A DNA stretch of 64,000 bases. Source: an uncultured Gammaproteobacteria bacterium. Its GTDB lineage: Bacteria > Pseudomonadota > Gammaproteobacteria > DRLM01. The notes under the pieces were generated by a model that saw nothing but the letters and a program-made list of their open reading frames with translations, did not search any database and was not told the DNA's origin. Shown here piece by piece: positions 31,054 through 48,868 of the stretch. Numbering within the stretch: position 1 is the first letter of the stretch; every line of letters starts with the position of its first letter. Made by a program: the position numbers and the translations under genes. Where the stretch lies: contig CAVSNY010000007.1 in NCBI GenBank assembly GCA_963729605.1, forward strand, positions 736,001 through 800,000. Reading direction: 5' to 3'.

Positions 31054-31128
31054 CGTGCGAGGGTGGGACAGTTGCCGGGCGGCTTGCTATACTCAGCGGC
31101 TATTTTGAGTCAGGGGCTTGGCCGGGGA

Positions 31129-31746
31129 ATGTTGGAGGTCGTCGATCTCGCTTGTGAGCGCGGTGAGCGCCGTCTGTTTCAGGGACTTAACTTTTCGCTG
31201 AAGACGGGCGAGCTGCTGTATGTGCATGGCCAAAACGGCAGCGGCAAGACCACGTTATTGCGCACCCTGTGCGGCTTGGCCTGGCCCGCCGCGGGGGAGG
31301 TGCGCTGGGACGGCACGGAGATCCGCCGCCTGGGCGACGAATACCACGGCAAGATGCTTTATATAGGTCATCTCAACGGGGTGAAGGACGATTTCACCGC
31401 CTTTGAGAATCTGCGGGTGACGGGGCGGCTGGCGGGTTACGCGGACAGCGAGGAACGGGCCCTCGCCGCCTTGCGGCGCATGGAGTTGACGGCTTGTGCC
31501 GAGTTGCCGGGCAAGGTTTTATCGCAAGGACAGCGGCGGCGGCTCGCCTTGGCGCGTTTGTTGTTGGGCGACAGCCGGTTGTGGATTTTAGACGAGCCGT
31601 TCAGTGCCCTGGACGTCAAATCCGTCGAGGGCATTCAGACTGTGTTAAGCGAACATCTCGATAATGGCGGCATGGTGGTGTTGACCACGCATCAGGAGGT
31701 GGAGATTACGTCCCGTCGCGCGCGGCATATCCACTTGAGCGCCTAA
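31129..31746 (+). CDS. ccmA: Heme export ABC ATPase
   Basis: GQNGSGKTT, LSQGQRRR, WILDEPF, LTTHQ; first gene of the ccm operon. Confidence 0.95.
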   Translation: MLEVVDLACERGERRLFQGLNFSLKTGELLYVHGQNGSGKTTLLRTLCGLAWPAAGEVRWDGTEIRRLGDEYHGKMLYIGHLNGVKDDFTAFENLRVTGRLAGYADSEERALAALRRMELTACAELPGKVLSQGQRRRLALARLLLGDSRLWILDEPFSALDVKSVEGIQTVLSEHLDNGGMVVLTTHQEVEITSRRARHIHLSA

Positions 31747-31756
31747 GGAATCGAGT

Positions 31757-32425
31757 ATGTGGGCAGCCCTGCGATGTGTGGTGATGCGCGACCTGACCTT
31801 GGCCATGCGCCGGCGCGCCGATGTGCTCACCACGTTGTTTTTCTTCGTGATCGTGGTGAGCCTGTTCCCACTCGGGGTGGGCCCGGAGATGGATACCCTG
31901 CGCCTGATGGGGCCGGGGGTGGTGTGGGTGGCGGCGCTGCTGGCGTCCATGTTGTCGCTGGGGCGTTTGTTCTCCGGCGATTACATCGACGGTACCTTGG
32001 AACACCTGGTGCTGGCGCCGCAGCCGTTGACGGTGCTGGTGCTGGGCAAGATCGCAGCCCATTGGCTGGTCAGCGGCCTGCCGCTGGTGTTGATCGCGCC
32101 GCTGCTGGGGATACAGTACGGGCTGTCGGCGGACGCGCTGTGGGTGCTGGTGTTGTCGCTGATTCTGGGTACCCCGGTGCTGAGCCTGATCGGCGCGGTG
32201 GGCGCGGCGCTCACCCTCGGTCTGCGCGGCGGCGGGGTGTTGGTGTCGTTGCTGGTGTTGCCGCTATACATCCCGGTGCTGATATTCGGGGCGGGGGCGG
32301 TGGAGGCGCAGGTGACGGGCTTGGGGCCGCAGGCGCATTTGTCCTTGCTGGGCGCGTTTTTGATGCCGGCGCTGGTGTTCGCACCGTGGGCCGCCGGTTG
32401 GGCATTGCGGATTTCACTGGAATAA
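31757..32425 (+). CDS. ccmB: Heme exporter permease
   Basis: LFPLGVGP, GVVWVAALLA, DYIDGTLE, LVLPLYIPVLIFG. Confidence 0.96.
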   Translation: MWAALRCVVMRDLTLAMRRRADVLTTLFFFVIVVSLFPLGVGPEMDTLRLMGPGVVWVAALLASMLSLGRLFSGDYIDGTLEHLVLAPQPLTVLVLGKIAAHWLVSGLPLVLIAPLLGIQYGLSADALWVLVLSLILGTPVLSLIGAVGAALTLGLRGGGVLVSLLVLPLYIPVLIFGAGAVEAQVTGLGPQAHLSLLGAFLMPALVFAPWAAGWALRISLE

Positions 32426-32440
32426 GGGGCGGGGTGTTCG

Positions 32441-33187
32441 GTGGCGGTAGGGCAGATCAACTGGTTCAAATTTTCGTCGCCGGCGACGTTTTATCCGCTG
32501 GCCGGCAAGCTCTTGCCTTATTTCACGGTGCTGGCCGTGGTTTTGACGGCCGTCGGTTTATACCTGGGTTTTTTCGTCGCCCCCACCGATTATAAACAGG
32601 GCGAGGGTTATCGAATCATTTTCATCCATGTGCCCGCCGCCTGGATGTCCATGTTGATTTACGTGGTGATGGCGGTGTATGCCGGGATGGGATTGGTATT
32701 CAATACCCGGCTGTCCTCCCTGATGGCCTCGGCGCTCGCGCCCACCGGCGCCTTGTTCACTTTTCTCGCCTTATGGACCGGCGCCTTATGGGGCAAGCCG
32801 ATGTGGGGGACCTGGTGGGTGTGGGACGCGCGGCTCACGTCGGAATTGATCCTGTTGTTTTTATACATTGGTTTCATGTCCTTGAAGGCGGCCATCGACG
32901 ATCCGCGCCGCGCCGCGCGCGCCAGCGGTTTGCTGGCGATCATCGGCGTGATCAATATCCCCATCATTTATAAATCGGTGGAGTGGTGGAATACCCTTCA
33001 TCAAGGCGCCACCATCAAGGCCAGCGGTACGTCGATGGAAACCACCATGTTGACCGCCATGCTGGTGATGACCTTCGCGATGTGGATGTATACCGTCGCG
33101 GTGGTGCTGGCGCGGGTGCGTTGCGAGATTTTGGAAGCGGAGCGCGACACCGAATGGGTGGCGGCGGAGTTGAGTAAATCACGATGA
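32441..33187 (+). CDS. ccmC: Heme exporter protein C
   Basis: IHVPAAW, WGKPMWGTWWVWDARLTS, WWNTLHQ. Confidence 0.97.
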   Translation: MAVGQINWFKFSSPATFYPLAGKLLPYFTVLAVVLTAVGLYLGFFVAPTDYKQGEGYRIIFIHVPAAWMSMLIYVVMAVYAGMGLVFNTRLSSLMASALAPTGALFTFLALWTGALWGKPMWGTWWVWDARLTSELILLFLYIGFMSLKAAIDDPRRAARASGLLAIIGVINIPIIYKSVEWWNTLHQGATIKASGTSMETTMLTAMLVMTFAMWMYTVAVVLARVRCEILEAERDTEWVAAELSKSR

Positions 33188-33366
33188 ATTGGGGCAGTGC
33201 GGGCGAGTTCTTCGCCATGGGCGGTTACGCCTTTTACGTATGGGGTTCCTTTGGGGTCGCCGCCTTGTTTTTATTGGTGGAGGTGATCATGGTCAGGCGC
33301 CGTAAGCGAACTATTATCCAGCGCCTGGGTCGTAGGAGGCGGATGCAAGCAGAGGTGAAACAATAA
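33184..33366 (+). CDS. ccmD: Heme exporter protein D
   Basis: FFAMGGYAFYVWGSFG, small TM protein between ccmC and ccmE. Confidence 0.93.
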   Translation: MNWGSAGEFFAMGGYAFYVWGSFGVAALFLLVEVIMVRRRKRTIIQRLGRRRRMQAEVKQ

Positions 33367-33842
33367 TGAAGCCCAGACATAAGCGGCTGGCATTTATTTT
33401 GGTAGGGCTAGCGGGCCTGGGGGTGGCGGCGACTTTGGTATTGAACGCCTTGAAGAGCAACCTGCAATTGTTTTATAGCCCCAGCGAGTTAGTGGCGGGC
33501 GCCGCGCCCAAAGAGCGCACTTTCCGCCTGGGCGGTTTGGTGGAAGAGGGAAGCATCAAACGGGAAAATGACGGGCTCACGGTGAATTTCGTGCTGACCG
33601 ACCGCGCCGAAAACGTCAATGTGATTTTCAAGGGGATATTGCCTGATCTCTTCAAAGAGGGGGAAGGCGCGGTGGCCTTGGGTAAGATCAACGATGACGG
33701 GGTGTTCATGGCGGAGGAAGTGCTGGCCAAGCACGACGAAACCTATATGCCGCCGGAAGTGGCCCAGGCCTTGGAGCAAGCGAAAAAAGCTCAGCCGGCG
33801 ACCGCGGTGCCTATCAATACCAATGGGGGGAGGGACATCTAA
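33366..33842 (+). CDS. ccmE: Heme chaperone
   Basis: RLGGLVEEGS, GILPDLFKEG, VLAKHDETYMPPE. Confidence 0.97.
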   Translation: MKPRHKRLAFILVGLAGLGVAATLVLNALKSNLQLFYSPSELVAGAAPKERTFRLGGLVEEGSIKRENDGLTVNFVLTDRAENVNVIFKGILPDLFKEGEGAVALGKINDDGVFMAEEVLAKHDETYMPPEVAQALEQAKKAQPATAVPINTNGGRDI

Positions 33843-35902
33843 TGGTGCCGGAGATTGGACATTTCGCGCTGATTATCGCTTTATGCATGGCCTTGGTGCA
33901 GGGCAGTTTGCCGATCATCGGCGCCGCGCGCGGAATACCGCGCTGGATGGCCTTGGCCCGGCCGTTGGCGCAAGGCATGTTCGTCTTTGTCGCCGTCGCC
34001 TTCGCCTGTCTCACCTATTCGTTTATTCAAAATGATTTCTCCGTGCTCTATGTGGCGTCGCACTCTAATTCGGCTCTGCCGCTGCAATACCGTATCGCCG
34101 GCGTATGGGGCGGTCATGAAGGTTCCCTGTTGCTGTGGATTTTGATGCTGACCGGCTGGATGCTGGCGGTCAGTATGTTCAGCCGTCATTTGCCCGATGA
34201 AATGGCGGCCCGGGTATTGGGCGTAATGGGCCTGGTGACGGTCGGTTTCCTGGCCTTTACGCTGTTCACCTCCAATCCCTTCGCCCGTTTGTTGCCCGCC
34301 GCGCTCGACGGCCGGGATTTGAATCCGCTGCTGCAAGACTTCGGTTTGATCATCCATCCGCCGATGTTGTACATGGGTTATGTCGGTTTCTCGGTGGCCT
34401 TCGCCTTCGCCATCGCCGCGTTGCTGGGCGGCAGGCTCGACGCCACCTGGGCGCGCTGGTCGCGCCCGTGGACCACGGTGGCCTGGATGTTCCTCACCAT
34501 CGGTATCGCGCTCGGCAGCTGGTGGGCCTATTACGAATTGGGCTGGGGCGGCTGGTGGTTCTGGGACCCGGTCGAGAACGCCTCGTTCATGCCTTGGTTG
34601 GTCGGCACGGCGCTGATCCATTCGCTCGCCGTCACCGAAAAACGCGGCAGCTTCAAGAGCTGGACCGTGCTGCTGGCGATCACGGCGTTTTCGCTGAGCC
34701 TGCTCGGCACCTTCCTCGTCCGATCGGGTGTGTTGACCTCGGTGCATTCCTTCGCCAACGACCCCGAGCGCGGCATGTTCATCCTGATTTTCCTGGTGAT
34801 CGTAGTCGGCGGTTCCCTGGCGCTGTTCGCATGGCGCGCGCCCAAGGTCGGTTTGGGCGGGCGTTTCGAGATGTTGTCGCGCGAGACCATGCTGCTCGCC
34901 AATAACGTGCTGTTCGTGGTCGCCGCCGGCACGGTGTTGATCGGCACCTTGGCGCCGCTGGTGGTGGACGCCATGGCCTCGCTCGGCGTCATCGCGCCGA
35001 CCAATAAGATCTCGGTGGGGGCGCCGTATTTCGACGCGGTATTTATTCCCATCATGGCCGCCGTGGTGTTTTTCATGGGGGTGGGGCCGGTCGCCAAATG
35101 GAAACAAACCACCGTGCCCGAGCTGGGACGGCGGATACGCTGGGCCGCGGCGGTCGCGATCGTCATGGCGATCATTACGCCTTTCGTGATGGGGCACTGG
35201 TCGTGGCTGGTCAGCCTGGGCGCGTTGATGGCCTTCTGGATCGTCGCCACCGTGCTGCTGAGTCTGCGCGACCGCTTGAGCCGGACCCCCGGCGACAAGC
35301 CGTGGCCGGTGCGCCTGGTGAATCTGCCCACCAGTTACCTCGGCATGCAGCTCGCGCATTTCGGGGTGGCGGTGTTCATCCTCGGTGTGATGGGGGTGAG
35401 CGGTTACGAGGAAGGCAAAGACGTGCGCATGGAGATCGGCGATACGGTCGAAGTGTCGGGCTATACCTTCCGTTTCGACGGCGTGATCAATGCCAAAGGC
35501 GCGAACTACGAGGCGCAACGCGGTCTGATCACGGTATTCAAGGGTGAGAAGCCGCTGATGCAGCTCCATCCCGAGAAGCGGGTCTATCGCGTGCAAAAAG
35601 ATGTCATGACCGAAGCGGCTATCGACAGCGGCTTTTTCCGCCACTTGTTCGTGGCGCTGGGTGAGCCGGTGGGCAACGGCGCCTGGAGCGTCCGGGTTTA
35701 TTACAAACCCTTGATCAACTGGATCTGGGGCGGCTGCGGCTTGATGGCCTTGGGCGGCTTGCTCGCGATCAGCGACCGCCGCTACCGCGCCTTGGCGCGC
35801 AAGCAGCGTCAGATGGCCGAGGCGGGCGAAGGGGAAGGCGACGCCTCCGATGCACCGGCCCCGGCCGGCGGTTTCTTGCGCGGTTCGGAGGTGAAGTCCT
35901 GA
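33842..35902 (+). CDS. ccmF: Cytochrome c heme lyase subunit
   Basis: WGGHEGSLLLW, HPPMLYMGY, WAYYELGWGGWWFWDPVENAS, SVHSFA. Confidence 0.97.
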   Translation: MVPEIGHFALIIALCMALVQGSLPIIGAARGIPRWMALARPLAQGMFVFVAVAFACLTYSFIQNDFSVLYVASHSNSALPLQYRIAGVWGGHEGSLLLWILMLTGWMLAVSMFSRHLPDEMAARVLGVMGLVTVGFLAFTLFTSNPFARLLPAALDGRDLNPLLQDFGLIIHPPMLYMGYVGFSVAFAFAIAALLGGRLDATWARWSRPWTTVAWMFLTIGIALGSWWAYYELGWGGWWFWDPVENASFMPWLVGTALIHSLAVTEKRGSFKSWTVLLAITAFSLSLLGTFLVRSGVLTSVHSFANDPERGMFILIFLVIVVGGSLALFAWRAPKVGLGGRFEMLSRETMLLANNVLFVVAAGTVLIGTLAPLVVDAMASLGVIAPTNKISVGAPYFDAVFIPIMAAVVFFMGVGPVAKWKQTTVPELGRRIRWAAAVAIVMAIITPFVMGHWSWLVSLGALMAFWIVATVLLSLRDRLSRTPGDKPWPVRLVNLPTSYLGMQLAHFGVAVFILGVMGVSGYEEGKDVRMEIGDTVEVSGYTFRFDGVINAKGANYEAQRGLITVFKGEKPLMQLHPEKRVYRVQKDVMTEAAIDSGFFRHLFVALGEPVGNGAWSVRVYYKPLINWIWGGCGLMALGGLLAISDRRYRALARKQRQMAEAGEGEGDASDAPAPAGGFLRGSEVKS

Positions 35903-36426
35903 TGGGTCGGTTTCTAATCCCCCTCGGGGTGTTCGGTTTGTTGGCGGTGTTCCTATTTATCGGGCTCAGTCTCAAGCCCAGTGAGATCCCTTCGCCCTTG
36001 CTCGATAAAGCGGCGCCGGCGTTCGCGTTGCCGCAATTGCATGAACCGGACGAAAACTTCACGCCCGCCGATCTGCGCGGCCAGGTCTGGCTGTTCAACG
36101 TGTGGGCTTCTTGGTGTGTGTCCTGCCGCGACGAGCACCCGTTGTTGTTGGATCTCGCGCGTACGGGCGAGGTGCCGATCTACGGCCTCAATTACAAGGA
36201 TCAACGCCAGGACGCCGTGCGCTGGCTGCAACAGCTCGGCAATCCCTATATCGCGAGCGCCTACGACCTCGAGGGCCAAGTGGGGATCGATTACGGGGTC
36301 TATGGCGTGCCGGAAACCTACGTGATCGATCGCGAAGGGGTGATCCGCCACAAACACATCGGTCCCATTACGCTGAAAGTTTTGACCGATGAAATTCTCC
36401 CCATCGTAAGGAAGCTCAAAGGATGA
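35902..36426 (+). CDS. ccmG: Thiol:disulfide interchange protein DsbE/CcmG
   Basis: NVWASWCVSCRDEHP, GLNYKD, GVYGVPET. Confidence 0.96.
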   Translation: MGRFLIPLGVFGLLAVFLFIGLSLKPSEIPSPLLDKAAPAFALPQLHEPDENFTPADLRGQVWLFNVWASWCVSCRDEHPLLLDLARTGEVPIYGLNYKDQRQDAVRWLQQLGNPYIASAYDLEGQVGIDYGVYGVPETYVIDREGVIRHKHIGPITLKVLTDEILPIVRKLKG

Positions 36427-36905
36427 AGCGGCTGGTATTGGTTTGGCTGCTGCTGGTCGGCGGCATGACGGCGGGTGTGGCCGCGGCCAAAGAAGCGGTG
36501 CCGGTGATGGGCGACGCCGTCATGCAGGCGCGGGTGATGAAACTCTCCGCCGAATTGCGCTGCCTGGTGTGCCAGGGGCAATCCTTGGCGGATTCCCACT
36601 CCGATTTCGCCATCGACATGCGCAACAAGATCATGGCGCTCATGAATGAGGGGATGAGCGATCGGGAAGTGAAAGCGTATCTGGTCGATCGCTACGGCGA
36701 ATTCATTTTGTATAAACCGCCCTTCTCCGGCATTACCACCATGGTGTGGCTGGGTCCGCTGGCGTTGTTCGCCATAGGCTCGGGGATATTGTTCTTCAAC
36801 CTCAAGCGGCGGCGTAAGACCGTGGCCGAGGCCACCTTGTCGCCGGAAGAACTGAATCGGGTACACAGCCTGTTAAATAAAGAGCCAGGGGATAAACACG
36901 CATGA
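36423..36905 (+). CDS. ccmH: Cytochrome c biogenesis protein CcmH
   Basis: ELRCLVCQGQSLADS, RYGEFILYKP. Confidence 0.95.
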   Translation: MKRLVLVWLLLVGGMTAGVAAAKEAVPVMGDAVMQARVMKLSAELRCLVCQGQSLADSHSDFAIDMRNKIMALMNEGMSDREVKAYLVDRYGEFILYKPPFSGITTMVWLGPLALFAIGSGILFFNLKRRRKTVAEATLSPEELNRVHSLLNKEPGDKHA

Positions 36906-38146
36906 TGATTTTTTCCGTGGTCGCGGCGCTGTTGCTTGCCGCGGCGTTGTTGTTCATCGTCCCTTCGTTATGGCGCCGGCACGGCCGTCAAGGCGTGCAA
37001 CGCGACCGTTCCAATCTGGAAATATACAAGGATCAGCTCGCCGAGCTGGAGGTCGATCTCAACGCCGGTACCTTGAGTCAAGAACAATTCGAGCATGGCC
37101 GGTTGGAGTTGGAGCGGCGTTTATTGGACGATGTCGCGCAGCAGCCCGCGCCGCCGGTGGTCGACGATAAAGACGCGGGACGCGGCGCGGCGGTGAGCCT
37201 GGCTTTGTTCGTCCCCCTGCTCGCGGTGTTGATCTATCTCATTCAGGGTGCGCCCGATGGCATTTCGCCGGAAAAGACGGCAGCCATGGTTGCGGGAAAT
37301 GGCGAACAACCCAGCCATGAAATCACCATGGACCAAATCCAGAACATGGTGGCGAAGCTGGCCGAACGCATGGAAACCAATCCCAACGATATCGAAGGCT
37401 GGTTGATGTTGGGCCGCTCCTATAGCGCCTTGGGACGTTACGCCGAGGCCGGCGCCGCGCTGGAAAGAGCGGTGGCCTTGCAGCCGGATAACGCCGACCT
37501 GCTGGTGGATTACGCCGACGTGCTCGCCATGGCCAGCGGTGAAACCCTGGAAGGCAAACCCGCCGAGTTGATCGCGCGGGCCTTGAGTCTCGATCCCAAT
37601 AATCAAAAGGGCTTGTGGCTTGCGGGGACCGCGGCCTTCGATCGGGGTGATTACAACCGCGCCATCGGTTATTGGGAACACTTGCTGGGGCAATTGCCGC
37701 CCGGTTCGCAAGAGGCCCAGGCCATGATCAATAATATCGCCGAGGCCCGCGCTCAGCGTGGGCAAGGCGGACCGGCGACGGCCGCCACGCCGGCGGCGGA
37801 ACAGATGGAGATCCAGGGTACCGTGCGCCTCAAACCGGAACTGGCGGGACGCGCCGCGCCCACCGATACGGTGTTCGTGTTCGCCCGCGCCGTGCAGGGG
37901 CCGCGCATGCCGCTGGCCATCCTGCGGGTGCAGGTCAAGGATCTGCCGCTGCAATTCAATTTGAACGATTCCCAGGCCGTGACGCCGATGGCGCGTTTGT
38001 CCGGTTATACCGAGGTGGCGGTGGGCGCCCGCATCTCCAAGAGCGGCAACGCCATGCCGGAGAGCGGCGACTTGGAAGGCATCGTCAATGCCGTGCAGGT
38101 GGGCAGCAGCGGCATCAACGTGATGATCGATACGGTCGTGCCTTGA
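36902..38146 (+). CDS. ccmI: Cytochrome c biogenesis protein CcmI/CycH
   Basis: YKDQLAEL, ELERRLL, TPRs (GWLMLGRSY), C-terminal GPRMPLA / ARISKSG domain. Confidence 0.93.
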   Translation: MMIFSVVAALLLAAALLFIVPSLWRRHGRQGVQRDRSNLEIYKDQLAELEVDLNAGTLSQEQFEHGRLELERRLLDDVAQQPAPPVVDDKDAGRGAAVSLALFVPLLAVLIYLIQGAPDGISPEKTAAMVAGNGEQPSHEITMDQIQNMVAKLAERMETNPNDIEGWLMLGRSYSALGRYAEAGAALERAVALQPDNADLLVDYADVLAMASGETLEGKPAELIARALSLDPNNQKGLWLAGTAAFDRGDYNRAIGYWEHLLGQLPPGSQEAQAMINNIAEARAQRGQGGPATAATPAAEQMEIQGTVRLKPELAGRAAPTDTVFVFARAVQGPRMPLAILRVQVKDLPLQFNLNDSQAVTPMARLSGYTEVAVGARISKSGNAMPESGDLEGIVNAVQVGSSGINVMIDTVVP

Positions 38147-38213: not shown

Positions 38214-38339
38214 ACCACGGAGGGCGCGGAGTTCTCGGAGAAAAAAATCGGGGACTTCACGCTTGGATCGAACCCGCTCGACGGGGGAGTTCGCCCAATG
38301 CCCATTCTGACGTTCCGCGTCCTCCGTGATTTCCGTGGT
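38214..38339. repeat. Inverted-repeat element with 9-nt periodic arms
   Basis: ACCACGGAG-GGCGCGGAG-TTCTCGGAG ... TTCCGCGTC-CTCCGTGAT-TTCCGTGGT. Confidence 0.6.
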
Positions 38340-38368
38340 TGGTATCCGCGGTTTTTAGGATGAAGGGG

Positions 38369-38920: not shown

Positions 38921-39044
38921 ATTGGCGCGATACCGCCGACACGCCGCGCTGTTGTACGGTACCGTCTTCTCAGTCCCGGCGCCGCTTGTTACTATTGCGC
39001 ACCGCCGCGGTGCTCACTGGGACAATAACCTTGAGGATGACACT

Positions 39045-39377
39045 ATGAACACCTTGTTTCGCAGCACACGCCGCAGCGCGATCGCGGCCATGGCGATCGC
39101 CTTGTGCATCGGCGGATGGACCGGTGTCGCGCAGGCGGCGGATCCCAAGAACGGCGCCACCTTGTATAACCAACATTGCGTCAACTGCCATGGCCAGCGC
39201 GGCGTGCCGGTGATGCCCGGCGTGCCCGACTTCTCCCGCCGCGAACGGCTGATGCAATCGGACCTGGATTTGATCAAGGCCATTTCCCGCGGCAAAGGCA
39301 TGATGCCCGCTTATCAAGGCCTGCTCAGTGAAAACGACATCCTGGATGTCATCTCCCATTTAAGAAACCTGCGGTGA
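39045..39377 (+). CDS. Monoheme class I cytochrome c (c6-like)
   Basis: GAGGA RBS, signal peptide ending AQA, CVNCH, distal GKGMMPAY. Confidence 0.92.
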   Translation: MNTLFRSTRRSAIAAMAIALCIGGWTGVAQAADPKNGATLYNQHCVNCHGQRGVPVMPGVPDFSRRERLMQSDLDLIKAISRGKGMMPAYQGLLSENDILDVISHLRNLR

Positions 39378-40504: not shown

Positions 40505-41727
40505 AGATCGGTGTTACGGGAATCGCGATCGGCCTGATCGCCGTAAGCGGCGCGCTGGTGGCGGCCTATCAATTCGGCACTCAGCGCCAGTCAGACGGTT
40601 TGAATGCCGGCGCGGCGGGTTTGGCGCAGCGTGCCGCCGCGCCCGGCGGTGTCATGCCGGCCAATCACCCCGCGACGGCGGGCGTCGGCGGATCCGTCGG
40701 CGACAATAAATTCGCCCACTTCCGGGTCGGCAACCGCAATGTGAAGAGTATTTACGCCGACGGCGGCGTGGTGTGGATCGGCACCTCGGGCGGGGTGATC
40801 CGCTATGATGTCGCGACGGATAAACACCAGCTGTTCGACAATCAACTGACCGGCCTGCTCTCCAACGGGATATTTCATGTCAGCCGGGTCGGCCGACGAA
40901 TGGTGGTGGGCACTTACGGCGGTGGTCTGTCGGTGTTCGATCCGGCCAAGGACGCCTGGCGCAACTACAATATCCCCGACGGTTTGGCCGACCAGTTCGT
41001 CTACGACGTGCAGCAGGTGCGCAACGGTGATGTGTGGATCGCCACCTGGTCCGGCGTCAACCGGGTGCGCGGCGGGGCCTTCGAAGATCCCAGCCAATGG
41101 GAAACCTTTACCGTTGAGAACACCGGCGGCGGTCTGCCCAATCCCTGGGTCTATGCCCTGGACGAAGGCAAGAACGGCGAGATGTGGTTCGCCACGGAAT
41201 ACGGCCTGGCCCGCTACCAGAACGGCAAGTGGGACCATTGGCAACACGCCGACGGTTTGGGCGCGCCCTACGAGCAGGTCAAAGAGGCCATCCAATTCAC
41301 CAGCGATCCCGGCCAGTCGTCGTCCCACCACGCCCAGCAGAAAGTCGAGCAGGGCTTGCAGGACGTCAACGTGGCCTATAATCCCAATTACATCATCTCC
41401 CTGGCGGTGACCGACGATGGAGTCGTGTGGTGCGGTACCTGGGGCGGCGGCTTGGCCCGTTTCGACGGCAAAACCTGGCGTAACTTCACCACCCAAGACG
41501 GCCTCCCCGCCAATCACATTTTCATGTTGTACAAGGGACCGGACGGCCAGTTGTGGGCCGGTACCAGCCGGGGTTTGGCGCGGCTCAATACGGACGGCAA
41601 GGGATTTACGGTGCTGACGACCCGTGACGGATTGTTCGCGGATAATGTCTTTTCCATGGCCCATGCCCAGGACGGCAGTGTATGGGTAGGGAGTTTTGGC
41701 GGCGTGGCCCGGCTCAACGGCTTATAG
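40501..41727 (+). CDS. Second stand-alone beta-propeller protein (paralogue)
   Basis: Same blade repeats (WIGTSGG, WCGTWGGG, DGLFADNVFS); N-terminal hydrophobic anchor and MPANHP linker. Confidence 0.85.
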   Translation: MKIGVTGIAIGLIAVSGALVAAYQFGTQRQSDGLNAGAAGLAQRAAAPGGVMPANHPATAGVGGSVGDNKFAHFRVGNRNVKSIYADGGVVWIGTSGGVIRYDVATDKHQLFDNQLTGLLSNGIFHVSRVGRRMVVGTYGGGLSVFDPAKDAWRNYNIPDGLADQFVYDVQQVRNGDVWIATWSGVNRVRGGAFEDPSQWETFTVENTGGGLPNPWVYALDEGKNGEMWFATEYGLARYQNGKWDHWQHADGLGAPYEQVKEAIQFTSDPGQSSSHHAQQKVEQGLQDVNVAYNPNYIISLAVTDDGVVWCGTWGGGLARFDGKTWRNFTTQDGLPANHIFMLYKGPDGQLWAGTSRGLARLNTDGKGFTVLTTRDGLFADNVFSMAHAQDGSVWVGSFGGVARLNGL

Positions 41728-41964
41728 CGTCTCATCTCTCTGCCTGAGCGACGCTAGCCTGGGGTTTTTCCTGGGTTTTTAGTCCAGTTCCGCGAAATGC
41801 TGCCGATAACCCTGTGGGGCTTATACCGGCCCCGCAGAGAGACATATGCCACAAACACTGGGTGTGTATCATCATTTTTCCGCTCCGAATGCGGCTTGTT
41901 CTCGTCCTTTGCGAAGCCGGGGTAAGCAGGTATTTGTCGGCTTGCCGGCGACCGGGATGCGGTC

Positions 41965-44436
41965 ATGAGGAGTCTCGGTACCCGCTTGGCCCTGGTGATC
42001 TCGGCGGTGTTGTCGCTGCTGGTCTTGTTCGCCGGCATGTGGCTGGAGCGGCAAGTCACCGAGACCATGCGCGCCGAAGAGGTGCGCCAGGCCAAATTGC
42101 ACGCCGGTACCTTGCTGGGCAGTTTGCAGACCTTGATGCTGAACGGCCAGGGCACGCTGGCCCGTTCCTGGCTGGACCGCATGCACGGTGAAGCCGGCAT
42201 CGTAGATATCGAGGTGCTGCGCCGGGACGGCGTGGAGGCCTTCACCGATTTGTCCACGGTGAAGGCCGTGAATGAGTATCTGGGCTACCCGCGTTTTCAG
42301 CGGGAACCTTCACTATCCCGCCATGGCCCTGACGTCAACAAGCCCGCCTTCAAACAGGCCTTGCAGGGCGAGTTGTCGGTGGATTGGGCCACGCCCGGCC
42401 AGATGTCTTTATACATGCCCATCGAGAGGCGCGGGGAATGTATCGCCTGTCATGGTTATGAAGATGATCCCATGCGCGGCGTCTTGAAGCTGGCCTTGTC
42501 CACCGTGGCGGCGGAAAACCGCATCGACGCCATGCGTCATCGGGTGTGGGTGATGTCCGCCGGCCTGGTGTTGCTGCTGGGCGTGGCGATGTGGGTGGCC
42601 TTGCGGGTCAGCGTGCTGGGGCCGATCGCCCATTTGCGCGATGCGATCAAACGGGTGGGCGAAGGCGACCGCGACGCCAAGCTGCCGGTCGGACGCCGCG
42701 ATGAGGTAGGCGAGGTGTCCGAGGTCTTCAACCGCATGCAGGACCAGTTGGTGGCAAGCGAGGTGCGGATCCGCGCCGTCATGGACAACGTGCTGGACGC
42801 CATCATCACCTTCGATGGAAAAGGTACGATCGAGTCGGCCAATCAGGCGGTGCGCAATGTGTTCGCATGCAGTCCCGAGGAACTGCTCGGCCAGAATCTC
42901 AAGATGTTGATGCCGGAACCTTACCGCGGCGAATACGAGCGCTTTCTGGCCCATTACATCGAAAGCGGCGAGCCGCGCATCCTCGGCGTGGGCCGCGAGG
43001 TGATGGGCCAGCGCAAGGGCGGCGGCATCTTCCCCATGGATTTGGCGGTGAGCGAGATGTGGGTGCACGGCCGGCGTTATTTCATCGGCATCATCCGCGA
43101 CATCACCGAACGCAAAGAGCAGATGGCGGCCATCGAATATCAGGCACTGCACGACGCCTTGACCGATTTGCCCAATCGCTCCCTGCTCTCCGATCGCCTG
43201 CACCAGGCGATCCTCAACGCGATCCGCGACAAGACGCCCCTGGCCTTGATCATCATGGATCTCGACCACTTCAAAGAGATCAACGATACCCTCGGCCATC
43301 ACAACGGCGACTTGATTTTGAAACAGGTGGCGACCCGGGTGCGCGGCGTGTTGCGTGAATCGGACACCGTGGCCCGCCTCGGCGGCGACGAGTTCGCGGT
43401 GCTGTTGCCCACCGCGGATTTGATCGACGCCACCCGCATCGCCAAGAAAATTCTGAGCGCCCTCGACCAGCCCTTCGATCTGGAAGGACAGTCCTTCCAC
43501 GTCGGCGGCAGCCTGGGCATCGCGCTGCTGCCCGAACACGGCCGCGACGGCACGGCGCTGATGAAGCGCGCCGACGTCGCGATGTACGAGGCCAAGCGCG
43601 GCAAGACCGGTTTCGCTTTATACGATCCTTCCAAGGATCAACACAGCCTGCGCAATCTGTCCTTGATGGGCGATTTGCGCTCCGCCATCGAACAAAACCA
43701 GTTGGTGCTTTACTATCAACCCAAGGTCAATATGCAGACCGGGCGGGTCAGCGGCGTGGAGGCCCTGGTACGCTGGCAACACCCGCAACATGGCTTGATG
43801 TATCCCGACGACTTCATCCCGCTCGCCGAGCAGGCGGGTTTGATCCGCCAGGTGACCTTGTGGGTGTTGGAAAAGGCCCTGGCCCAACACACCGATTGGT
43901 TGCAGATGGGTATCGACTTGAGCATGGCGGTGAACCTGTCGGCGCGTAACCTGCAGGACAATGTCTTCCCCGACGAGGTGGGCGCCCTGCTGCGCGGTTA
44001 TCACCATACGCAATTGTCGCGACTGCGTTTCGAGATCACCGAAACCGCGATGATGGCCGACCCCGGCCGCGCGGCGGAGATACTCAACGCCCTCGGCGCC
44101 ATGGGTATCCGGTTGTCGATCGACGATTTCGGCACCGGCTATTCCTCCTTGGCGTACCTCAAGCAATTGCCGGTGGCGGAATTGAAGATCGACAAGTCCT
44201 TCGTGCTGGGCATGAGCACCGACGACAACGACGCGGTGATCGTGCGTTCCACCATCGACCTCGCCCATAACATCGGCATGCGGGTGGTGGCGGAAGGTGT
44301 CGAGGATAAAAAGACCTACGACATGTTGGCCACGCTGGGTTGCGACGTGGTGCAGGGTTATTTCATCAGCCGGCCGGTGACGCCCGAGGAATTATTGCGC
44401 TGGTTGCAGAATCCGCCCTGGGGCCTGCAGGTATAA
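41965..44436 (+). CDS. Membrane c-di-GMP enzyme: periplasmic CxxCH sensor - HAMP - PAS - GGDEF - EAL
   Basis: Two TM helices flanking CIACH; RRDEVGEV HAMP; PAS ending RDITERK; RESD I-site with RLGGDEF; VEALVRW, IDDFGTGYSSL, LKIDKSF, VAEGVE. Confidence 0.93.
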   Translation: MRSLGTRLALVISAVLSLLVLFAGMWLERQVTETMRAEEVRQAKLHAGTLLGSLQTLMLNGQGTLARSWLDRMHGEAGIVDIEVLRRDGVEAFTDLSTVKAVNEYLGYPRFQREPSLSRHGPDVNKPAFKQALQGELSVDWATPGQMSLYMPIERRGECIACHGYEDDPMRGVLKLALSTVAAENRIDAMRHRVWVMSAGLVLLLGVAMWVALRVSVLGPIAHLRDAIKRVGEGDRDAKLPVGRRDEVGEVSEVFNRMQDQLVASEVRIRAVMDNVLDAIITFDGKGTIESANQAVRNVFACSPEELLGQNLKMLMPEPYRGEYERFLAHYIESGEPRILGVGREVMGQRKGGGIFPMDLAVSEMWVHGRRYFIGIIRDITERKEQMAAIEYQALHDALTDLPNRSLLSDRLHQAILNAIRDKTPLALIIMDLDHFKEINDTLGHHNGDLILKQVATRVRGVLRESDTVARLGGDEFAVLLPTADLIDATRIAKKILSALDQPFDLEGQSFHVGGSLGIALLPEHGRDGTALMKRADVAMYEAKRGKTGFALYDPSKDQHSLRNLSLMGDLRSAIEQNQLVLYYQPKVNMQTGRVSGVEALVRWQHPQHGLMYPDDFIPLAEQAGLIRQVTLWVLEKALAQHTDWLQMGIDLSMAVNLSARNLQDNVFPDEVGALLRGYHHTQLSRLRFEITETAMMADPGRAAEILNALGAMGIRLSIDDFGTGYSSLAYLKQLPVAELKIDKSFVLGMSTDDNDAVIVRSTIDLAHNIGMRVVAEGVEDKKTYDMLATLGCDVVQGYFISRPVTPEELLRWLQNPPWGLQV

Positions 44437-44673
44437 TCCCGGCGGGCGCCATTCCCGCTGCTCGCGGCGTAGAGATACAACAAGGGTTAACGAAGATTGC
44501 GCTATACGAGGCGATACCTCGTAGCGTGCGCCGCACGGAAAGGCGGCTTACGCGCGCACGGCGCACATTGTGGCTGGCGCCATTACTATAATCTCCCACC
44601 CGTGTGATTCTCCCTTTGATCTGGCGCGGGGAGAACGCAGCGAGGGTAGCTTCCCGTGCGCAGTCAGGCCCCT

Positions 44674-45816
44674 TTAACGCGCCGGCGCGGTCGGCGCCGT
44701 GGTTGCCCAATCGTCGGGCGCGCGGCGCACCGGCCGGAAGATATCGATCTTGCGAAAATATTGATCGGCTATATATACCCGCCCCGTTTCGTCCACCGCC
44801 ACCCCGGCTGGCAAATAAAATTTGCCCGGCTTGCTGCTCTCGTCCCGATTGCCGATGTGCATCAGGATCTGGCCTTGCGGGTTGAAGAGCTGGACATTGC
44901 CGAAGGCGGCGTCGGCCACGTAAATGGTACCTTCGGCGTCGGTGGCGATGCCTTTGGGTCGGGCGAATTGGCCGGGGAAACGCCCCACTTCGCCGAAGGC
45001 GAGGCGAAAACTCCCGTCGGCCGCGAAGCCCTGCACCCGGAAATTGCCGCCGTCCACCACGTACACGCTGCCGTCCGCGGCGGTGGCGGCCTGCAACGGC
45101 AGATTGAATTGGCCGTTGCCGGTGCCGCGGGTGCCGATGGTTTGCAGCAAGGCACCGCTGCGCGGATCGAGCACATGGACGTGATGCTGCTCGCTGTCCA
45201 CCCCGCCCACATCCACCACGTAAAGCCGCTGGCCGTCCGGGCTGAGGGCGACCCCCGAGGGCCGGCGCAGCTCGGCGTCGCTGCCGAGGACGCGGAGGTG
45301 CTTGCCGCCGGCGTCGTAGACCTGCACCCGCCGCGCGCTGACGTCGGCGACGTAGATTTCGTTATCGGGCGACAAGGTGATGCCGATGGGTTTTTGCAGC
45401 CGGCCCGGCTCGCTTTGGCCGAACTGGAGGAAGCGCTTGCCGGCGATGTCGAACAACAACACCGCGCTTTGCGCGGTGTCGGTGACGTAGACCCGCCCGC
45501 CGCGGGCGGCGACGCCGTAGGGTTTCACCAGGCCTTTGACTTCCTCGCCGCGGCCGGTGGCGAGTTCGCGCCAGCGGGCGAAGCCGCTCAACTGCTCGAC
45601 GTCTTCGTTGATGCGCAGGGTGCGTTCGTAGATGAAACGCGCCTCGTCGGGCGGCGGCGGATAGACGGGCGGTTCAAGCCGCGGGGCGGGCGGGGCGCTG
45701 GCGCAGCCGGTCAACAGGCCCAGCACGCATAACGCGACCAGACCCGGCTTTAGGGCGCCTCTAAAAACCCGCTGAAACCGCGATGGCGGTGTTGGAAACG
45801 TGCTCAAAATACTCAT
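44674..45816 (-). CDS. NHL-repeat (6-bladed beta-propeller) lipoprotein
   Basis: Lipobox LTGC; VYPPPPDEARF; repeats LVKPYGVA, LQKPIGI, LRRPSGVA, FNLP, FARPKGIA, FYLPAGVA. Confidence 0.9.
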   Translation of the reverse strand: MSILSTFPTPPSRFQRVFRGALKPGLVALCVLGLLTGCASAPPAPRLEPPVYPPPPDEARFIYERTLRINEDVEQLSGFARWRELATGRGEEVKGLVKPYGVAARGGRVYVTDTAQSAVLLFDIAGKRFLQFGQSEPGRLQKPIGITLSPDNEIYVADVSARRVQVYDAGGKHLRVLGSDAELRRPSGVALSPDGQRLYVVDVGGVDSEQHHVHVLDPRSGALLQTIGTRGTGNGQFNLPLQAATAADGSVYVVDGGNFRVQGFAADGSFRLAFGEVGRFPGQFARPKGIATDAEGTIYVADAAFGNVQLFNPQGQILMHIGNRDESSKPGKFYLPAGVAVDETGRVYIADQYFRKIDIFRPVRRAPDDWATTAPTAPAR

Positions 45817-45891
45817 GACTCCGTGTGCAGCGCGCTTTTTCGCCCATTTCCGCCTTGCCTTCGCGCCTTGATCGAATTTTTAGAGGCGCCC
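45753..45891. mobile_element. MITE family B (139 bp, perfect 15-bp TIR, TTTA target duplication)
   Basis: GGGCGCCTCTAAAAA (45753-67) / TTTTTAGAGGCGCCC (45877-91); TTTA at 45749-52 and 45892-95. Confidence 0.88.
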
Positions 45892-45892
45892 T

Positions 45893-46690
45893 TTATTTGA
45901 TATGGCATGTTTCACACAGGCGATCGGCGCGGGTGCGCAGCAGGAGCGTCACGTCGGGATCGTGGACGTTGTGGCAGGTGGCGCACTCGACTTTGCCGTC
46001 ATAAAGTTTGATGCCGTTGTCGAAACCGTAGGGGCTGTCGGGCGTGCGAAAATCCTGGTCGTTGTTGTTGAGGCCGGCATAGGTCATCGAGATGGCGTGG
46101 TCGTTGGTGAGATCGGTGCCGATGTGTTTGATGGCGATGCTGTGCGCCACCCGGCCGTCATGGCATTTGCCGCAGCTCATTAAATCGTTGCCGCCGTTGA
46201 GGCGCAAATGCAGCGCCGCGTCCTCGCTGCTCTGCCAGCCGTCGGGTTTGAACACCGTCATGTCCACGCCCATGGTGCCGTCGTGGCAGGACAGGCACAG
46301 CAGGCTGATCGGGCTGGGCGTGCGCACCTTGTTGTCGAGGGTGCGGGTATCGTAGATGTCATAGGCGCCGGTGGCGGGGACGAAACGATTCCAGCCCGGA
46401 ATGCCGCCTTGTCCGGCGCTGTCCTGCTCGGGCCGTTCGGGGGGCAGATGGCAATAGACGCAGGAGTTGCCGTAATCGGAGAAGGCCACTCCGGGCATGG
46501 CCACCACGCCGGCGCGCTGGTTGAGTCCGGTGAAGTCGTGTTTGGTGCCGAGCAGGGTGCCGGCCAGGGCATTCGCGCCGAGCAGCAGCGCGGCGATGAT
46601 GGCCGCGGCGCCGGCGATACGGGTGGCTGACGAGGCGCGCTCATGCGAACGCATCGGTGCGGGTGCGCTGTGCTGTGCTGGGCGTGTCAC
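45893..46690 (-). CDS. Pentaheme cytochrome c, OmcE-like motif order
   Basis: Signal peptide; TKHDF, CVYCH, WNR, CLSCHDG, CGKCH, GTDLTNDHAI, VECATCHNVHDP, LCETCHIK; start GTG 46690 or ATG 46654. Confidence 0.88.
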   Translation of the reverse strand: MTRPAQHSAPAPMRSHERASSATRIAGAAAIIAALLLGANALAGTLLGTKHDFTGLNQRAGVVAMPGVAFSDYGNSCVYCHLPPERPEQDSAGQGGIPGWNRFVPATGAYDIYDTRTLDNKVRTPSPISLLCLSCHDGTMGVDMTVFKPDGWQSSEDAALHLRLNGGNDLMSCGKCHDGRVAHSIAIKHIGTDLTNDHAISMTYAGLNNNDQDFRTPDSPYGFDNGIKLYDGKVECATCHNVHDPDVTLLLRTRADRLCETCHIK

Positions 46691-46877
46691 TGCGTGCAGA
46701 ACCTTTCCGCTTGATTTTGGCCGGGAACGGCAGTCTAGTTATGACTGGTCCAAGAGTAGCGCAATTCATTTATTTGCGCCACAATGATGCCCGCCCCGGA
46801 GAATATATGCCCGCCGCTGCGGCGGTCCGGGTCATATGCGAATGTCTTAACCCAGCGGAACATCCGACAGCCTCACG

Positions 46878-47924
46878 ATGACTATGCGCGCCGCGGCCTT
46901 CGCCGCCCTTACAGTCTTGACCGTGCTGATCGCCACCCCGGCCTCCGCCGCGGTGGACGGCGCGGCGGTGTACGTCGAGCATTGCCAGGTCTGCCACGGC
47001 GACAAAGGCGACGGCAATACCCGCGTGCGGCGGGGTTTGACGCCGCCGCCGCGCGACTTCACCAGCGCGCGGGCGCGCCAGGAGTTGAGCCGCGAGCGCA
47101 TGATCAATTCGATTGCCCACGGCCGGCCCGGCACCGCCATGGTGGGATTCGGTCAGCGCCTGTCGGAAGAGGAGATCGCCGCGGTGGCCGATCACATCCG
47201 CGCCAGTTTCATGACCGCCCGTGACGGCAAGGCCGAGCCCCGTCCTGCCAAACTGGTGTTGGGCGAACAATTGTACGTGCGCAATTGCGCCGTGTGTCAC
47301 GGCGACAAGGGCAGTGGCGCGATGTGGACCCAGTCGAGCCTCAACCCGGCGCCGCGGGACTTCACCTCGCCGGCGACCCGCGAGGAATTGAGCCGCGAGC
47401 GGATGATCAACTCGGTGACCTTCGGCCGGCCCGGTACGGCGATGATGTCCTTCAGCAAACGGCTTTCTCCCGCCGAGATCGAGACGGTGGTCGACTATGT
47501 GCGCGCCACCTTCTTTTTGAAGGAGCCCGCCCTGCCGCCCGAGCACGCGCAGCGGGTCCAGGCCGACATGGCGCAGCCCTTTCCCAACGGTTTGCGCGGC
47601 GACGCCGCTTGGGGACGGGAGTTTTACGAACACAATTGTTTCACCTGCCACGGCAAGGAAGGCGACGGCAAAGGGCCGCGCTCGAAATTCATCAATCCCA
47701 AGCCGCGTAATTTCCTCGAAACCGATTCACGCGCGCGGTTGAACCGGCCCGCCCTGTTCGACGCGGTGCGCGACGGGCTGCGCGGCACGGTGATGCCGGC
47801 CTGGGGCAAGGTGCTCAGCGAACAGGAGATCGCCAACGTGGCGGAATATGTGTTCACCGCCTTCGTCCATCCGGCCGCCGCCTCCGCCCCCCCGGCGGAT
47901 AAAAAAAAACTGAACGCCCCGTAG
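46878..47924 (+). CDS. Tri-heme cytochrome c (three class I His/Met domains); N-terminal half of a possible hexaheme fusion
   Basis: Signal peptide; CQVCH, CAVCH, CFTCH each followed by PxPRxF and GxxGTxM. Confidence 0.92.
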   Translation: MTMRAAAFAALTVLTVLIATPASAAVDGAAVYVEHCQVCHGDKGDGNTRVRRGLTPPPRDFTSARARQELSRERMINSIAHGRPGTAMVGFGQRLSEEEIAAVADHIRASFMTARDGKAEPRPAKLVLGEQLYVRNCAVCHGDKGSGAMWTQSSLNPAPRDFTSPATREELSRERMINSVTFGRPGTAMMSFSKRLSPAEIETVVDYVRATFFLKEPALPPEHAQRVQADMAQPFPNGLRGDAAWGREFYEHNCFTCHGKEGDGKGPRSKFINPKPRNFLETDSRARLNRPALFDAVRDGLRGTVMPAWGKVLSEQEIANVAEYVFTAFVHPAAASAPPADKKKLNAP

Positions 47925-48868
47925 CCGCCAGCGCCGCGCAAATCGCCCGCGGCAAGCAGGTCTATAACGAACGCTGTTATTTCTGTCACGGCTACAACGG
48001 CGACGCCAAGACCTTGGCCGCCAGCTATCTGTCACCTCCGCCGCGGGATTTCACCAAGAGCGATCCCGCCAGGCTGAGCCGGGAAAAAATGATCGCCGCC
48101 GTACGCGACGGCCGGCCCGGCACGGCCATGAAAAGTTTCTCGACGCTGTTGAACGAGCAGGATATCGCCGCCGTGGTGGACTTCGTCCGTGCCACCTTCA
48201 TCGACCAGCGCGGTATCAACACTTATTACCATACCGTTGAAAACGGCTGGCCCGATCATCAACGCTACGCGGCGGCCTTTCCGTTCGCCTTGGGCGAGAT
48301 CGCGCTGGACACGCCGTGGGAGGAATTGACCCCGGCCCAGCAGGCGGGCAAACGTTTGTTCATGTCGAGTTGCATCAGTTGCCACGACCGGGCGCGGGTC
48401 AACGACGAAGGCGTGGTGTGGGACCCGCGCTCGGTGTCGTTTCCGCGCGGGGGCTACCGGCATGATGTCGAGCAGGATAAAAAAGTGGACGCGGTGAGCG
48501 GGGCGACACCCTACGCCAAACACGATAAGCCGCCCAAGCTGGAAAAGGCCACGGCGCAGGAGCGGCGCGGCGAACAGTTGTTTCAGGCCAATTGCGCGTT
48601 CTGTCACGCCGCGGACGGCACGGCGCGCAATTGGATCGGACGGTTTCTCGAGCCCCATCCCCGCGACCTCACCGACGCCGCGGCCATGAAGGGGATGGGG
48701 CGGGCGGAAATCAAAGAGGCGATCCGCGAGGGTGTGCCGGGCACGCCGATGTCGGCGTGGAAGCATGTGCTGCCGGATCAGGACATCGACGCCATCGTCG
48801 CCTATATCGTTCGGGTCTTTCATCCGCTGCCGGCGGTTCCCGATCGGCCTCCCGCCCCCCGGCCTTGA
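47903..48868 (+). CDS. Tri-heme cytochrome c C-terminal module in the -1 frame, lacking its own start and signal peptide
   Basis: Frame open from 47903 (after TAA 47900-02); CYFCH at 47975-89 precedes the first canonical start (TTG 48014); also CISCH and CAFCH. Confidence 0.85.
   Translation, partial: KKTERPVAASAAQIARGKQVYNERCYFCHGYNGDAKTLAASYLSPPPRDFTKSDPARLSREKMIAAVRDGRPGTAMKSFSTLLNEQDIAAVVDFVRATFIDQRGINTYYHTVENGWPDHQRYAAAFPFALGEIALDTPWEELTPAQQAGKRLFMSSCISCHDRARVNDEGVVWDPRSVSFPRGGYRHDVEQDKKVDAVSGATPYAKHDKPPKLEKATAQERRGEQLFQANCAFCHAADGTARNWIGRFLEPHPRDLTDAAAMKGMGRAEIKEAIREGVPGTPMSAWKHVLPDQDIDAIVAYIVRVFHPLPAVPDRPPAPRP

Follow-up and report, generated by a model that had tools for sequence, protein, structure and literature searches.

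The window analysed here, a stretch of 64,000 nucleotides (nt) from an uncultured gammaproteobacterium (contig CAVSNY010000007.1 of assembly GCA_963729605.1), encodes on its minus strand a c-type cytochrome with five haem motifs (45893..46690), called the pentahaem below, and next to it an NHL beta-propeller lipoprotein (44674..45816). Sequence and structural model identify the pentahaem as a genuine homologue of the nanowire subunit OmcE with the OmcE fold, and by sequence comparison the two proteins together represent a duplicated cytochrome-propeller unit that belongs to the Uet/OmcE-type system. With moderate confidence we propose that the pentahaem, together with its NHL partner, acts as an outer-membrane or periplasmic electron relay serving extracellular electron uptake, and that the gene cluster in which the pair lies would be accessory to a Uet/OmcE-type outer-membrane conduit.

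The open reading frame (ORF) of the pentahaem encodes 265 amino acids from a GTG at 46690, with GGAAAGG about 10 nt 5' of this codon, and an alternative start, the ATG at codon 13, would give a product of 253 amino acids. A Sec signal peptide was read from the sequence with a putative cleavage at ALA/GT, and the histidine of the TKHD motif is placed in the mature N-terminus. The ORF contains five CxxCH motifs in the order CVYCH, CLSCH, CGKCH, CATCH and CETCH. From the N-terminus, the recognisable motifs are TKHDF (residues 49-53), CVYCH (77-81), WNR (100-102), ISLLCLSCHDG (128-138) and CGKCH (173-177), followed in the C-terminal part by GTDLTNDHAI (191-200), VECATCHNVHDP (234-245), LLLR (249-252) and LCETCHIK (258-265). 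The Pfam and NCBIfam libraries gave generic multihaem signatures below their cut-offs and nothing else (Paired_CXXCH_1, E 4.1e-10). In an RNA-library run (X19), a 255-nt piece with 1 difference was found on the pentahaem gene and a 261-nt piece with 4 differences on the NHL gene, DNA carry-over being possible for both.

A phmmer search of the pentahaem against all PDB chains returned three matches, two of which were nanowire subunits. The OmcE chain of G. sulfurreducens (7tfs_A) was matched at E 7.7e-15 over query residues 32-265 and chain residues 11-232, and 9yuq_N at E 9e-12, the latter carrying the label 'putative multiheme cytochrome c', which is consistent with the D. soudanensis OmcE bundle described in the available text of Petersen et al. 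(mBio 2026; PMC13712944). The pentahaem shares with OmcE (7TFS, 9YUQ) full-length homology, the fold and the order of the four core CxxCH motifs and of TKHD, NDH and C..CH-x-V-H. OmcE is a tetrahaem protein, whereas the window protein has five haems; the CGKCH and the His that follows it fall into a gap of OmcE in the alignment to 7tfs_A, and the fifth haem is, as read from the aligned sequences, inserted behind haem 2, which places it between core haems 2 and 3. An earlier sequence-only reading of this DNA had described this motif order and the extra CGKCH after haem 2, and both were recovered in the ORF translation and in the phmmer alignment.

The structure of the mature pentahaem was predicted with AlphaFold2. 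The model made with 32 close homologues was unusable (predicted local distance difference test score, pLDDT, 41.4) and a diverse alignment of 86 rows was needed; with these 86 homologues, a pLDDT of 88.7 and a predicted template-modelling (TM) score (pTM) of 0.84 were obtained. When this model was compared with the PDB by Foldseek, the sole significant match was 7TFS (E 5.9e-7, probability 1.00, TM scores of 0.53/0.58 over 210 columns with 31% identity), the runner-up having an E of 4.5. Similarly, VIA-align placed the model on 7TFS with a Z of 12.6 and a root-mean-square deviation of 3.3 Å over 176 residues, spanning model residues 7-221, and the runner-up chain had a Z of 2.4. The resemblance to OmcE claimed in the sequence-only reading was thus confirmed by sequence (7tfs_A, 9yuq_N) and by fold (7TFS), and the profile and structure comparison it had proposed gave significant similarity, the lack of which it had named as grounds for dropping the claim. 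A two-copy model of the mature pentahaem with four haems gave an interface score (ipSAE) of 0.00 in both runs; it was made without controls and nothing is drawn from it.

The haem ligands were inventoried first in 32 close homologues (57-94% identical to the pentahaem), where all five CxxCH motifs and H51, H161, H183, H198 and H243 were invariant (32/32) and H189 was nearly so. OmcE-like ORFs were also taken from 80 related loci and the window, and the 91 proteins with four or five haems were aligned. The four core CxxCH columns were common to 91/91, the window's protein included, and the extra CxxCH of the 44 five-haem proteins lay at the window's column in 40, at a second column in 3 and at a third in 1. 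The distal His residues of OmcE were present in the 47 four-haem proteins at TKH in 46, at CH-x-P-H in 45 and at NDH and C..CH-x-V-H in 47 each. The window's clade (n = 14) retained three of these four (TKHD, NDH and C..CH-x-V-H) but lost the CH-x-P-H His, which was replaced by Pro in 13 members and by Glu in 1, whereas the 26 other five-haem proteins with the extra motif at the same position kept all four (CH-x-P-H in 26/26) and had an equivalent of His161 in 24/26. The five CxxCH motifs and H51, H161, H183, H198 and H243 were present in 14/14 clade members, H161 and H183 being gains relative to OmcE, in which they are absent, and H189 was His in just 7/14. The clade therefore has exactly ten conserved His per five haems with no conserved spare, from which a relocated ligand is predicted and bis-His ligation is probable for each of the five haems; His183 probably takes over from the lost CH-x-P-H ligand.

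In a tree of the four- and five-haem relatives built without the insert columns, the window's clade formed one branch with a Shimodaira-Hasegawa-like approximate likelihood ratio test (SH-aLRT) value of 100 and a long stem amid four- and five-haem relatives. The extra-haem state required at least five changes on this tree, and the order of gains and losses is therefore not settled by it. The ligand change that marks the clade, with CH-x-P-H lost and an invariant His183 gained, is, as far as the aligned sequences tell, new here. Missing axial His residues would have spoken against the sequence-only reading; ten invariant His were found, that of TKHD among them, yet one distal His of OmcE (CH-x-P-H) is gone from the clade.

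The ligand count also bears on the possibility that the pentahaem is an enzyme. Many five-haem cytochromes are enzymes or the electron donors of enzymes, and an added, exposed haem could be catalytic, in which case the pentahaem would be a periplasmic multihaem enzyme, for instance one that reduces or oxidises a small nitrogen or sulfur compound at the extra haem. This is very improbable in our judgement, as there are as many invariant distal His as haems (five) and no coordination site is thus left free, no catalytic family was matched in Pfam or NCBIfam, and the fold matches OmcE alone. A catalytic role of the extra haem was rejected on the ligand count.

The partner gene encodes a six-bladed NHL beta-propeller lipoprotein of 380 amino acids with the lipobox LLTG/C and Ala at +2, which by the E. 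coli rule suggests sorting to the outer membrane. The protein matched Pfam NHL at E 1.3e-30 with four repeats, and most of its sequence could be aligned to six-bladed NHL propellers of the PDB (6d69_A, E 2.7e-51). Its gene lies downstream of the pentahaem gene on the same strand after a spacer of 76 nt, and GGAG precedes its ATG. A scan of the minus strand revealed nothing terminator-like either between the two genes or beyond them, and because of this they are likely co-transcribed. The adjacency was kept in 14/14 clade members at distances of 0-156 bp. In the wider set, an NHL match lay within 500 bp of 65/91 and within 2.5 kb of 75/91 four- or five-haem genes, and likewise beside 34/36 eleven-haem relatives. 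At least one OmcE-like/NHL pair within 500 bp was present in 72/81 loci, some of these loci being cut by contig ends. The window's genome has three OmcE-like cytochrome modules with three NHL propellers next to them, and a beta-propeller lipoprotein gene adjoins the cytochrome gene of OmcE as well. Thus, of the co-transcribed NHL lipoprotein that had been claimed from the letters, the adjoining lipoprotein holds as a dedicated partner (72/81 loci, 14/14 clade members), while its co-transcription keeps the likelihood given above. A contig of run X13, from a related strain, skips 143 nt (window 45746-45890) that comprise the spacer and the first 23 codons of the called NHL ORF, and translation of the NHL gene may in fact begin downstream of the ATG at 45816.

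The conduit to which the pair would be accessory was sought in the rest of the genome. A uet/OmcE-type cluster was found on another contig (C6, locus L084:5022-18333), with all genes on one strand (minus). It encodes a UetA-like tetrahaem of 272 amino acids (9yuq, E 7.8e-28; 7tfs, E 4.9e-24) that keeps CH-T-P-H, a 622-amino-acid protein without Pfam match (putative barrel), two c7-type trihaems, a 539-amino-acid protein, two NHL proteins, an 895-amino-acid multihaem protein with an OmcE-like head, ResB and CcsA. This layout agrees with uetA-J/ccsBA of a 2022 preprint (10.1101/2022.05.06.490989), where the counterpart of the 622-amino-acid protein, UetC, is called a beta-barrel; its fold is putative here, and its gene is present in a single copy in the window's genome. 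The uet cluster lies on another contig in this genome, whereas it is a few tens of kb away from the cluster described in the preprint.

The C6 tetrahaem is nearer to the solved OmcE than the pentahaem is. The pentahaem was 28% identical to the UetA-like protein of the same genome (E 7e-24), and the window's NHL protein was 35% identical to its UetI-like NHL lipoprotein (E 6e-48). UetA with UetH/UetI on C6 is a cytochrome-plus-NHL unit paralogous to the window pair. The UetA-like protein has four haems, keeps CH-T-P-H and is encoded next to the 622-amino-acid putative barrel, and the pentahaem differs from it in all of these features.

Co-occurrence of the two units was surveyed in 61 genomes, the window's and those of 60 relatives, with a cut-off of at least 72% identity for pentahaem orthologues. 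OmcE-like genes and a barrel homologue were found in the same 15/61 genomes. A pentahaem orthologue was present in 13/15 barrel-bearing genomes and in 0/46 of those without a barrel, the genomes being kin and the counts not independent; with this query, none was found in the barrel-bearing genomes G002 (99% complete) and G010 (84% complete). Four genomes (G004, G008, G009 and G045) carry both the pentahaem and the uet genes on the same contig, with 24-45 kb between them, and a single locus of a Rubrivivax metagenome-assembled genome (MAG; L057) contains a barrel, a peptidyl-prolyl isomerase (PPIase), a tetrahaem-NHL pair, two class-I cytochromes, an NHL-five-haem pair and ccmF. The strict co-occurrence of the pentahaem with the Uet conduit in the genomes searched is new here. 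Furthermore, the window's genome has two RuBisCO large-subunit genes above the family cut-off and a CcoN-like gene, and the named relative Ca. Tenderia is a cathode-oxidising autotroph according to the available text of the 2022 preprint and other reports; this lifestyle fits an electron-uptake relay.

The pair lies in a conserved cluster with the order ccm, thioredoxin, monohaem cytochrome c, two Reg_prop genes, haem-GGDEF-EAL gene, NHL, pentahaem, class-I cytochromes and argC. Directly upstream of the cluster are the System I cytochrome c maturation genes (ccmA, B, C, E, F ... I/H; 31063..38146, plus strand), before which stands a bat-type aerotolerance/adhesion operon (BatD, TPR-VWA, VWA, DUF58; 23103-28899, minus strand), an arrangement also found in Ca. 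Tenderia electrophaga according to the accessible part of the 2022 preprint. The cluster continues on the plus strand with a TlpA/ResA-like thioredoxin (38339-38920), a monohaem class-I cytochrome (38922-39377), two overlapping Reg_prop beta-propeller genes that are kept in the loci of relatives (39374-40504 and 40501-41727; Pfam E 9.3e-25 and 5.4e-24) and a gene for a membrane HAMP-PAS-GGDEF-EAL enzyme (41965..44436), which converges on the NHL gene. An intergenic region of 187 bp (46691..46877) separates the pentahaem operon from the divergent class-I cytochrome genes, after which argC follows on that side, and presumably contains promoters for both directions; a promoter scan with the sigma-70 consensus found no sigma-70-like promoter in 44300-47000.

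This order recurs in 13 related loci (L001-L013; pentahaems 56-79% identical), all from uncultured Gammaproteobacteria, with the divergent layout at the pentahaem kept in each. One of them (L005) is from a Candidatus Tenderia sp. MAG and has the same order with a pentahaem 75% identical. The survey of gene neighbourhoods that the sequence-only reading had proposed thus gave a conserved cluster. A search for a large barrel by tblastn with two divergent barrel queries found no match in the window cluster or in L001-L013, and the reach of such a search is weak, barrels diverging fast. That reading had also remarked that no porin or secretion gene is visible here and that the cytochrome may be periplasmic, and both remarks agree with the neighbourhood, which encodes periplasmic cytochromes of class I along with ccm genes but no barrel in cis, the one putative barrel being encoded elsewhere in the genome (C6).

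The available text of the 2022 preprint describes a 'secondary c-type cytochrome cluster', conserved in Tenderiales and a neighbouring group, whose members are a thioredoxin, a CcoP-like cytochrome, two sensor-domain proteins, a haem cyclic di-GMP (c-di-GMP) phosphodiesterase, an NHL protein, a pentahaem and two trihaems. All nine orthogroup types were found in the window after type-I ccm genes and in order (31063-48868), being matched by description and by the synteny of L001-L013. The preprint lists the two trihaems as separate proteins, whereas in the window they look like one recoded gene, as discussed below.

The regulatory members of this cluster raise a sensory alternative. The HAMP-PAS-GGDEF-EAL enzyme has a periplasmic domain (about residues 26-195) with a single CxxCH (CIACH) and is, by its domains and this motif, a sensor with a c-type haem that acts on c-di-GMP turnover. 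Through its redox state, read at the envelope, the pentahaem might then feed this sensor and the Reg_prop proteins and so set c-di-GMP and attachment on electron-donating solids. The gene of the haem sensor and the two Reg_prop genes do lie within the same conserved block, and the three are grouped as regulatory in the accessible part of the preprint. The sensor gene, however, converges on the pair and is not co-transcribed with it, and no full-length match to it was listed in L001, L010, L011 and L012 despite the pentahaem-NHL pair in these loci. In addition, the NHL gene of L008-L012 is followed by the gene of a second five-haem cytochrome, behind which L011 has two other propeller genes, and five tightly packed haems in the OmcE arrangement are typical of conduction. 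We consider a sensory role improbable.

One of the nearest published precedents for the pentahaem is a proposed wire. According to the available text of Petersen et al. (PMC13712944), many OmcE-like proteins, mainly of uncultured bacteria, have an extra CxxCH; an insulated four-haem chain with a more exposed fifth haem at a preferred place was predicted for them, and they were proposed as an uncharacterised nanowire family between OmcE and OmcZ and modelled as wires. The accessible text of a 2025 preprint places OmcE among the families that gained a haem motif. In the OmcE-type subunits published, as far as the available texts describe them, a histidine from the neighbouring subunit completes a haem. 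The window protein resembles the five-haem proteins of the mBio paper in length (265 amino acids) and in the preferred site of its fifth CxxCH (the column of 40/44); it differs from the other 26 same-position proteins in the lost CH-x-P-H, the invariant His183 and the clade of its own. The same paper, in the part available, takes a large barrel gene and a propeller lipoprotein gene nearby as the criterion of wire capability, with a minimal cluster of two multihaem cytochromes, two propeller lipoproteins, OmcE and a large barrel. The window cluster differs from that of OmcE in having no large barrel, second propeller or big multihaem cytochrome in cis. A locus of a Nitrospirota genome (L017) has the full set of the mBio type, with a five-haem protein, NHL, a cytochrome, a SurA-like PPIase, a 670-amino-acid protein without Pfam match, a further NHL and a 1104-amino-acid multihaem protein.

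The pentahaem might accordingly be read as a five-haem 'leaky' OmcE-type nanowire subunit that forms a head-to-tail polymer, in which a His of each subunit would complete a haem of the next, the NHL protein would be the assembly factor and a UetC-like barrel the exit. Besides the OmcE fold and sequence homology and the five-haem nanowire family already proposed (in the available part of PMC13712944), such a wire would agree with the four core haem motifs and three of the four OmcE distal His that are kept, that of TKHD included, with the count of exactly ten conserved His per five haems, and with a VIA alignment that covers the filament subunit from model residue 7, the N-terminal arm being modelled as in OmcE. 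Although the restriction of the pentahaem to barrel-bearing genomes among the 61 also points in this direction, a large barrel nearby, which the mBio paper asks for, was found in none of the 14 clade members, and an OmcE-type tetrahaem closer to OmcE already adjoins the barrel in this genome. Moreover, the neighbours of the pair are periplasmic class-I cytochromes, ccm genes and sensors, and one defining distal His is lost. A polymer has been seen for OmcE and would be hypothetical for the window protein. A wire of this kind appears rather unlikely to us.

A relay is favoured because the genes around the pair encode periplasmic, high-potential class-I cytochromes, maturation factors and sensors, and none of them a barrel. 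Several observations weigh against it. Ten conserved His for five haems with no spare are what would be expected of an OmcE-type subunit whose haem is completed by a neighbour, as argued in the available text of PMC13712944, where the five-haem relatives are modelled as wires, and the His of the N-terminal TKHD is invariant. The one UetC-like barrel of the genome could serve for export of the pentahaem in trans. The loci were searched for barrels by tblastn with two divergent queries, which has a weak reach, the relatives are kin so that the co-occurrence counts are not independent, and the match of the CcoN-like oxidase was under the family cut-off (233 vs 583 bits).

In the proposed relay, the pentahaem would be held or assembled by the NHL lipoprotein, either on the cell surface or on the side of the outer membrane that faces the periplasm. 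The pentahaem would take electrons from the Uet conduit and hand them to the high-potential class-I tri/hexahaem cytochromes, from which they would pass to a terminal oxidase, and in this way the host, a CO2-fixing lithoautotroph, would take up electrons from outside the cell. The extra haem, for which solvent exposure is predicted, would be a likely docking or branch point. We infer in this scheme the location of the pentahaem, the direction of electron flow, its contact with the NHL protein and its state as monomer or polymer. A bolder form joins both ideas: the pentahaem would be a five-haem OmcE-type wire whose exposed extra haem passes electrons sideways to the class-I tri/hexahaem cytochromes, a 'leaky' nanowire for uptake by aerobic CO2-fixing Tenderia-like bacteria and not for metal reduction, with assembly by its own NHL propeller, export through the shared Uet barrel, and His183 rewiring the haem through which the main chain and the side haem are connected. 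This form is doubtful, and we give it slightly less credence than the plain wire.

The class-I cytochromes to which the relay would deliver are encoded by two overlapping frames. ORF1 (46878..47924, plus strand) is a trihaem class-I c-type cytochrome with a signal peptide and three CxxCH motifs and matched Pfam Cytochrome_CBB3 at E 1.6e-42 in three stretches. ORF2 (47903..48868, plus strand) is a trihaem class-I reading frame in the -1 frame of ORF1 without a signal peptide of its own, and its first haem motif, CYFCH, sits 5' of its first ATG/GTG/TTG (48014). At the overlap there is a run of nine A's (47901..47909, plus strand; GAT AAA AAA AAA CTG), a candidate recoding site, and from this arrangement ORF1 and ORF2 look like one recoded gene. 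Among 13 other loci with a close ORF2 homologue, the junction has nine A's in 10 and ten A's in 2 (L009 and L013), and the two frames are in frame in 0/13. In L009 the ten-A run is paired with a +1 frame relation. The sole locus without the A-run is that of the Rubrivivax MAG (L057), and there ORF2 has its own ATG and signal peptide.

An assembly error as the source of the nine A's was considered and rejected, as the layout occurs in 12 other genomes and contigs of three other metagenome studies cross the run with its length unchanged (X1, 47301-48765; X5, 47300-47970; X13, 46515-48240). No stimulatory hairpin was found around or 3' of the run, the folding of 47885-47990 being no better than that of shuffled sequences (z 0.77), and the lack of a standout downstream hairpin favours transcriptional slippage as the mode of recoding, with ribosomal -1 frameshifting as the other candidate. 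The products would be a trihaem and a 3+3 hexahaem fusion. In a literature search on slippage and c-type cytochromes, none of the matches listed contained a cytochrome term in the text available.

Some of the related loci differ from the window in gene content. In L008-L012 a second, longer five-haem OmcE-like paralogue (open frame of 334-357 amino acids, at about 12000-13060 in each locus) follows the NHL gene. This paralogue keeps CH-x-P-H and groups with betaproteobacterial five-haem proteins on the tree, and in L011 PD40 and Kelch propeller genes stand between it and the Reg_prop genes. In a Nitrospiria MAG (L014:7023-10699), a five-haem OmcE-like gene (42% identical) lies near homologues of a Reg_prop gene (53%) and of a class-I cytochrome, and parts of the module thus also exist outside Gammaproteobacteria.

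The distribution of the pentahaem was followed in several collections. A word-indexed search found 444 homologues, of which the best 120, for which identities were given, were 58-100% identical; this number, together with the cytochrome-NHL adjacency kept throughout the clade, is well outside what chance would give. An exhaustive search of 1.84 billion representatives gave 2775 matches at E <= 1e-3, 630 at E <= 1e-10 and 17 at E <= 1e-30. In species-representative genomes, relatives were encoded in 567/599 candidate stretches, the best 80 of them spread across many phyla. Near-identical DNA, with a share of 0.39-0.64 of sampled words, was found in 18 runs of 11 studies, and the habitats were wetland, biofilter, sludge, soil, rock, groundwater, mud, freshwater and bioreactor metagenomes. 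The available main text of the Tenderia metatranscriptome paper holds no data on this pentahaem, although its supplementary tables may hold some, and a literature search on its presumed locus tags and accessions returned just the 2022 preprint.

OmcE-type wires have been studied in metal-reducing Desulfuromonadia. The hosts of OmcE are metal reducers, whereas the host of the window is a CO2-fixing gammaproteobacterium related to electron-uptake organisms, and a five-haem OmcE version is here placed inside the conserved electron-uptake gene set of Tenderia-like lithoautotrophs. As a discovery this is modest because the five-haem variant and its gene cluster are already in print, and the window gene adds a member to them. 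It joins, however, two descriptions that do not cite each other: the word OmcE occurs 0 times in the 2022 preprint (10.1101/2022.05.06.490989), and Tenderia, uet and electron uptake occur 0 times each in the 2026 mBio paper (PMC13712944). The cytochrome and its NHL partner, with no barrel in cis, offer a compact two-gene system for asking what the ubiquitous NHL partner does, whether the fifth haem makes a side exit, and whether OmcE relatives can work without forming wires.

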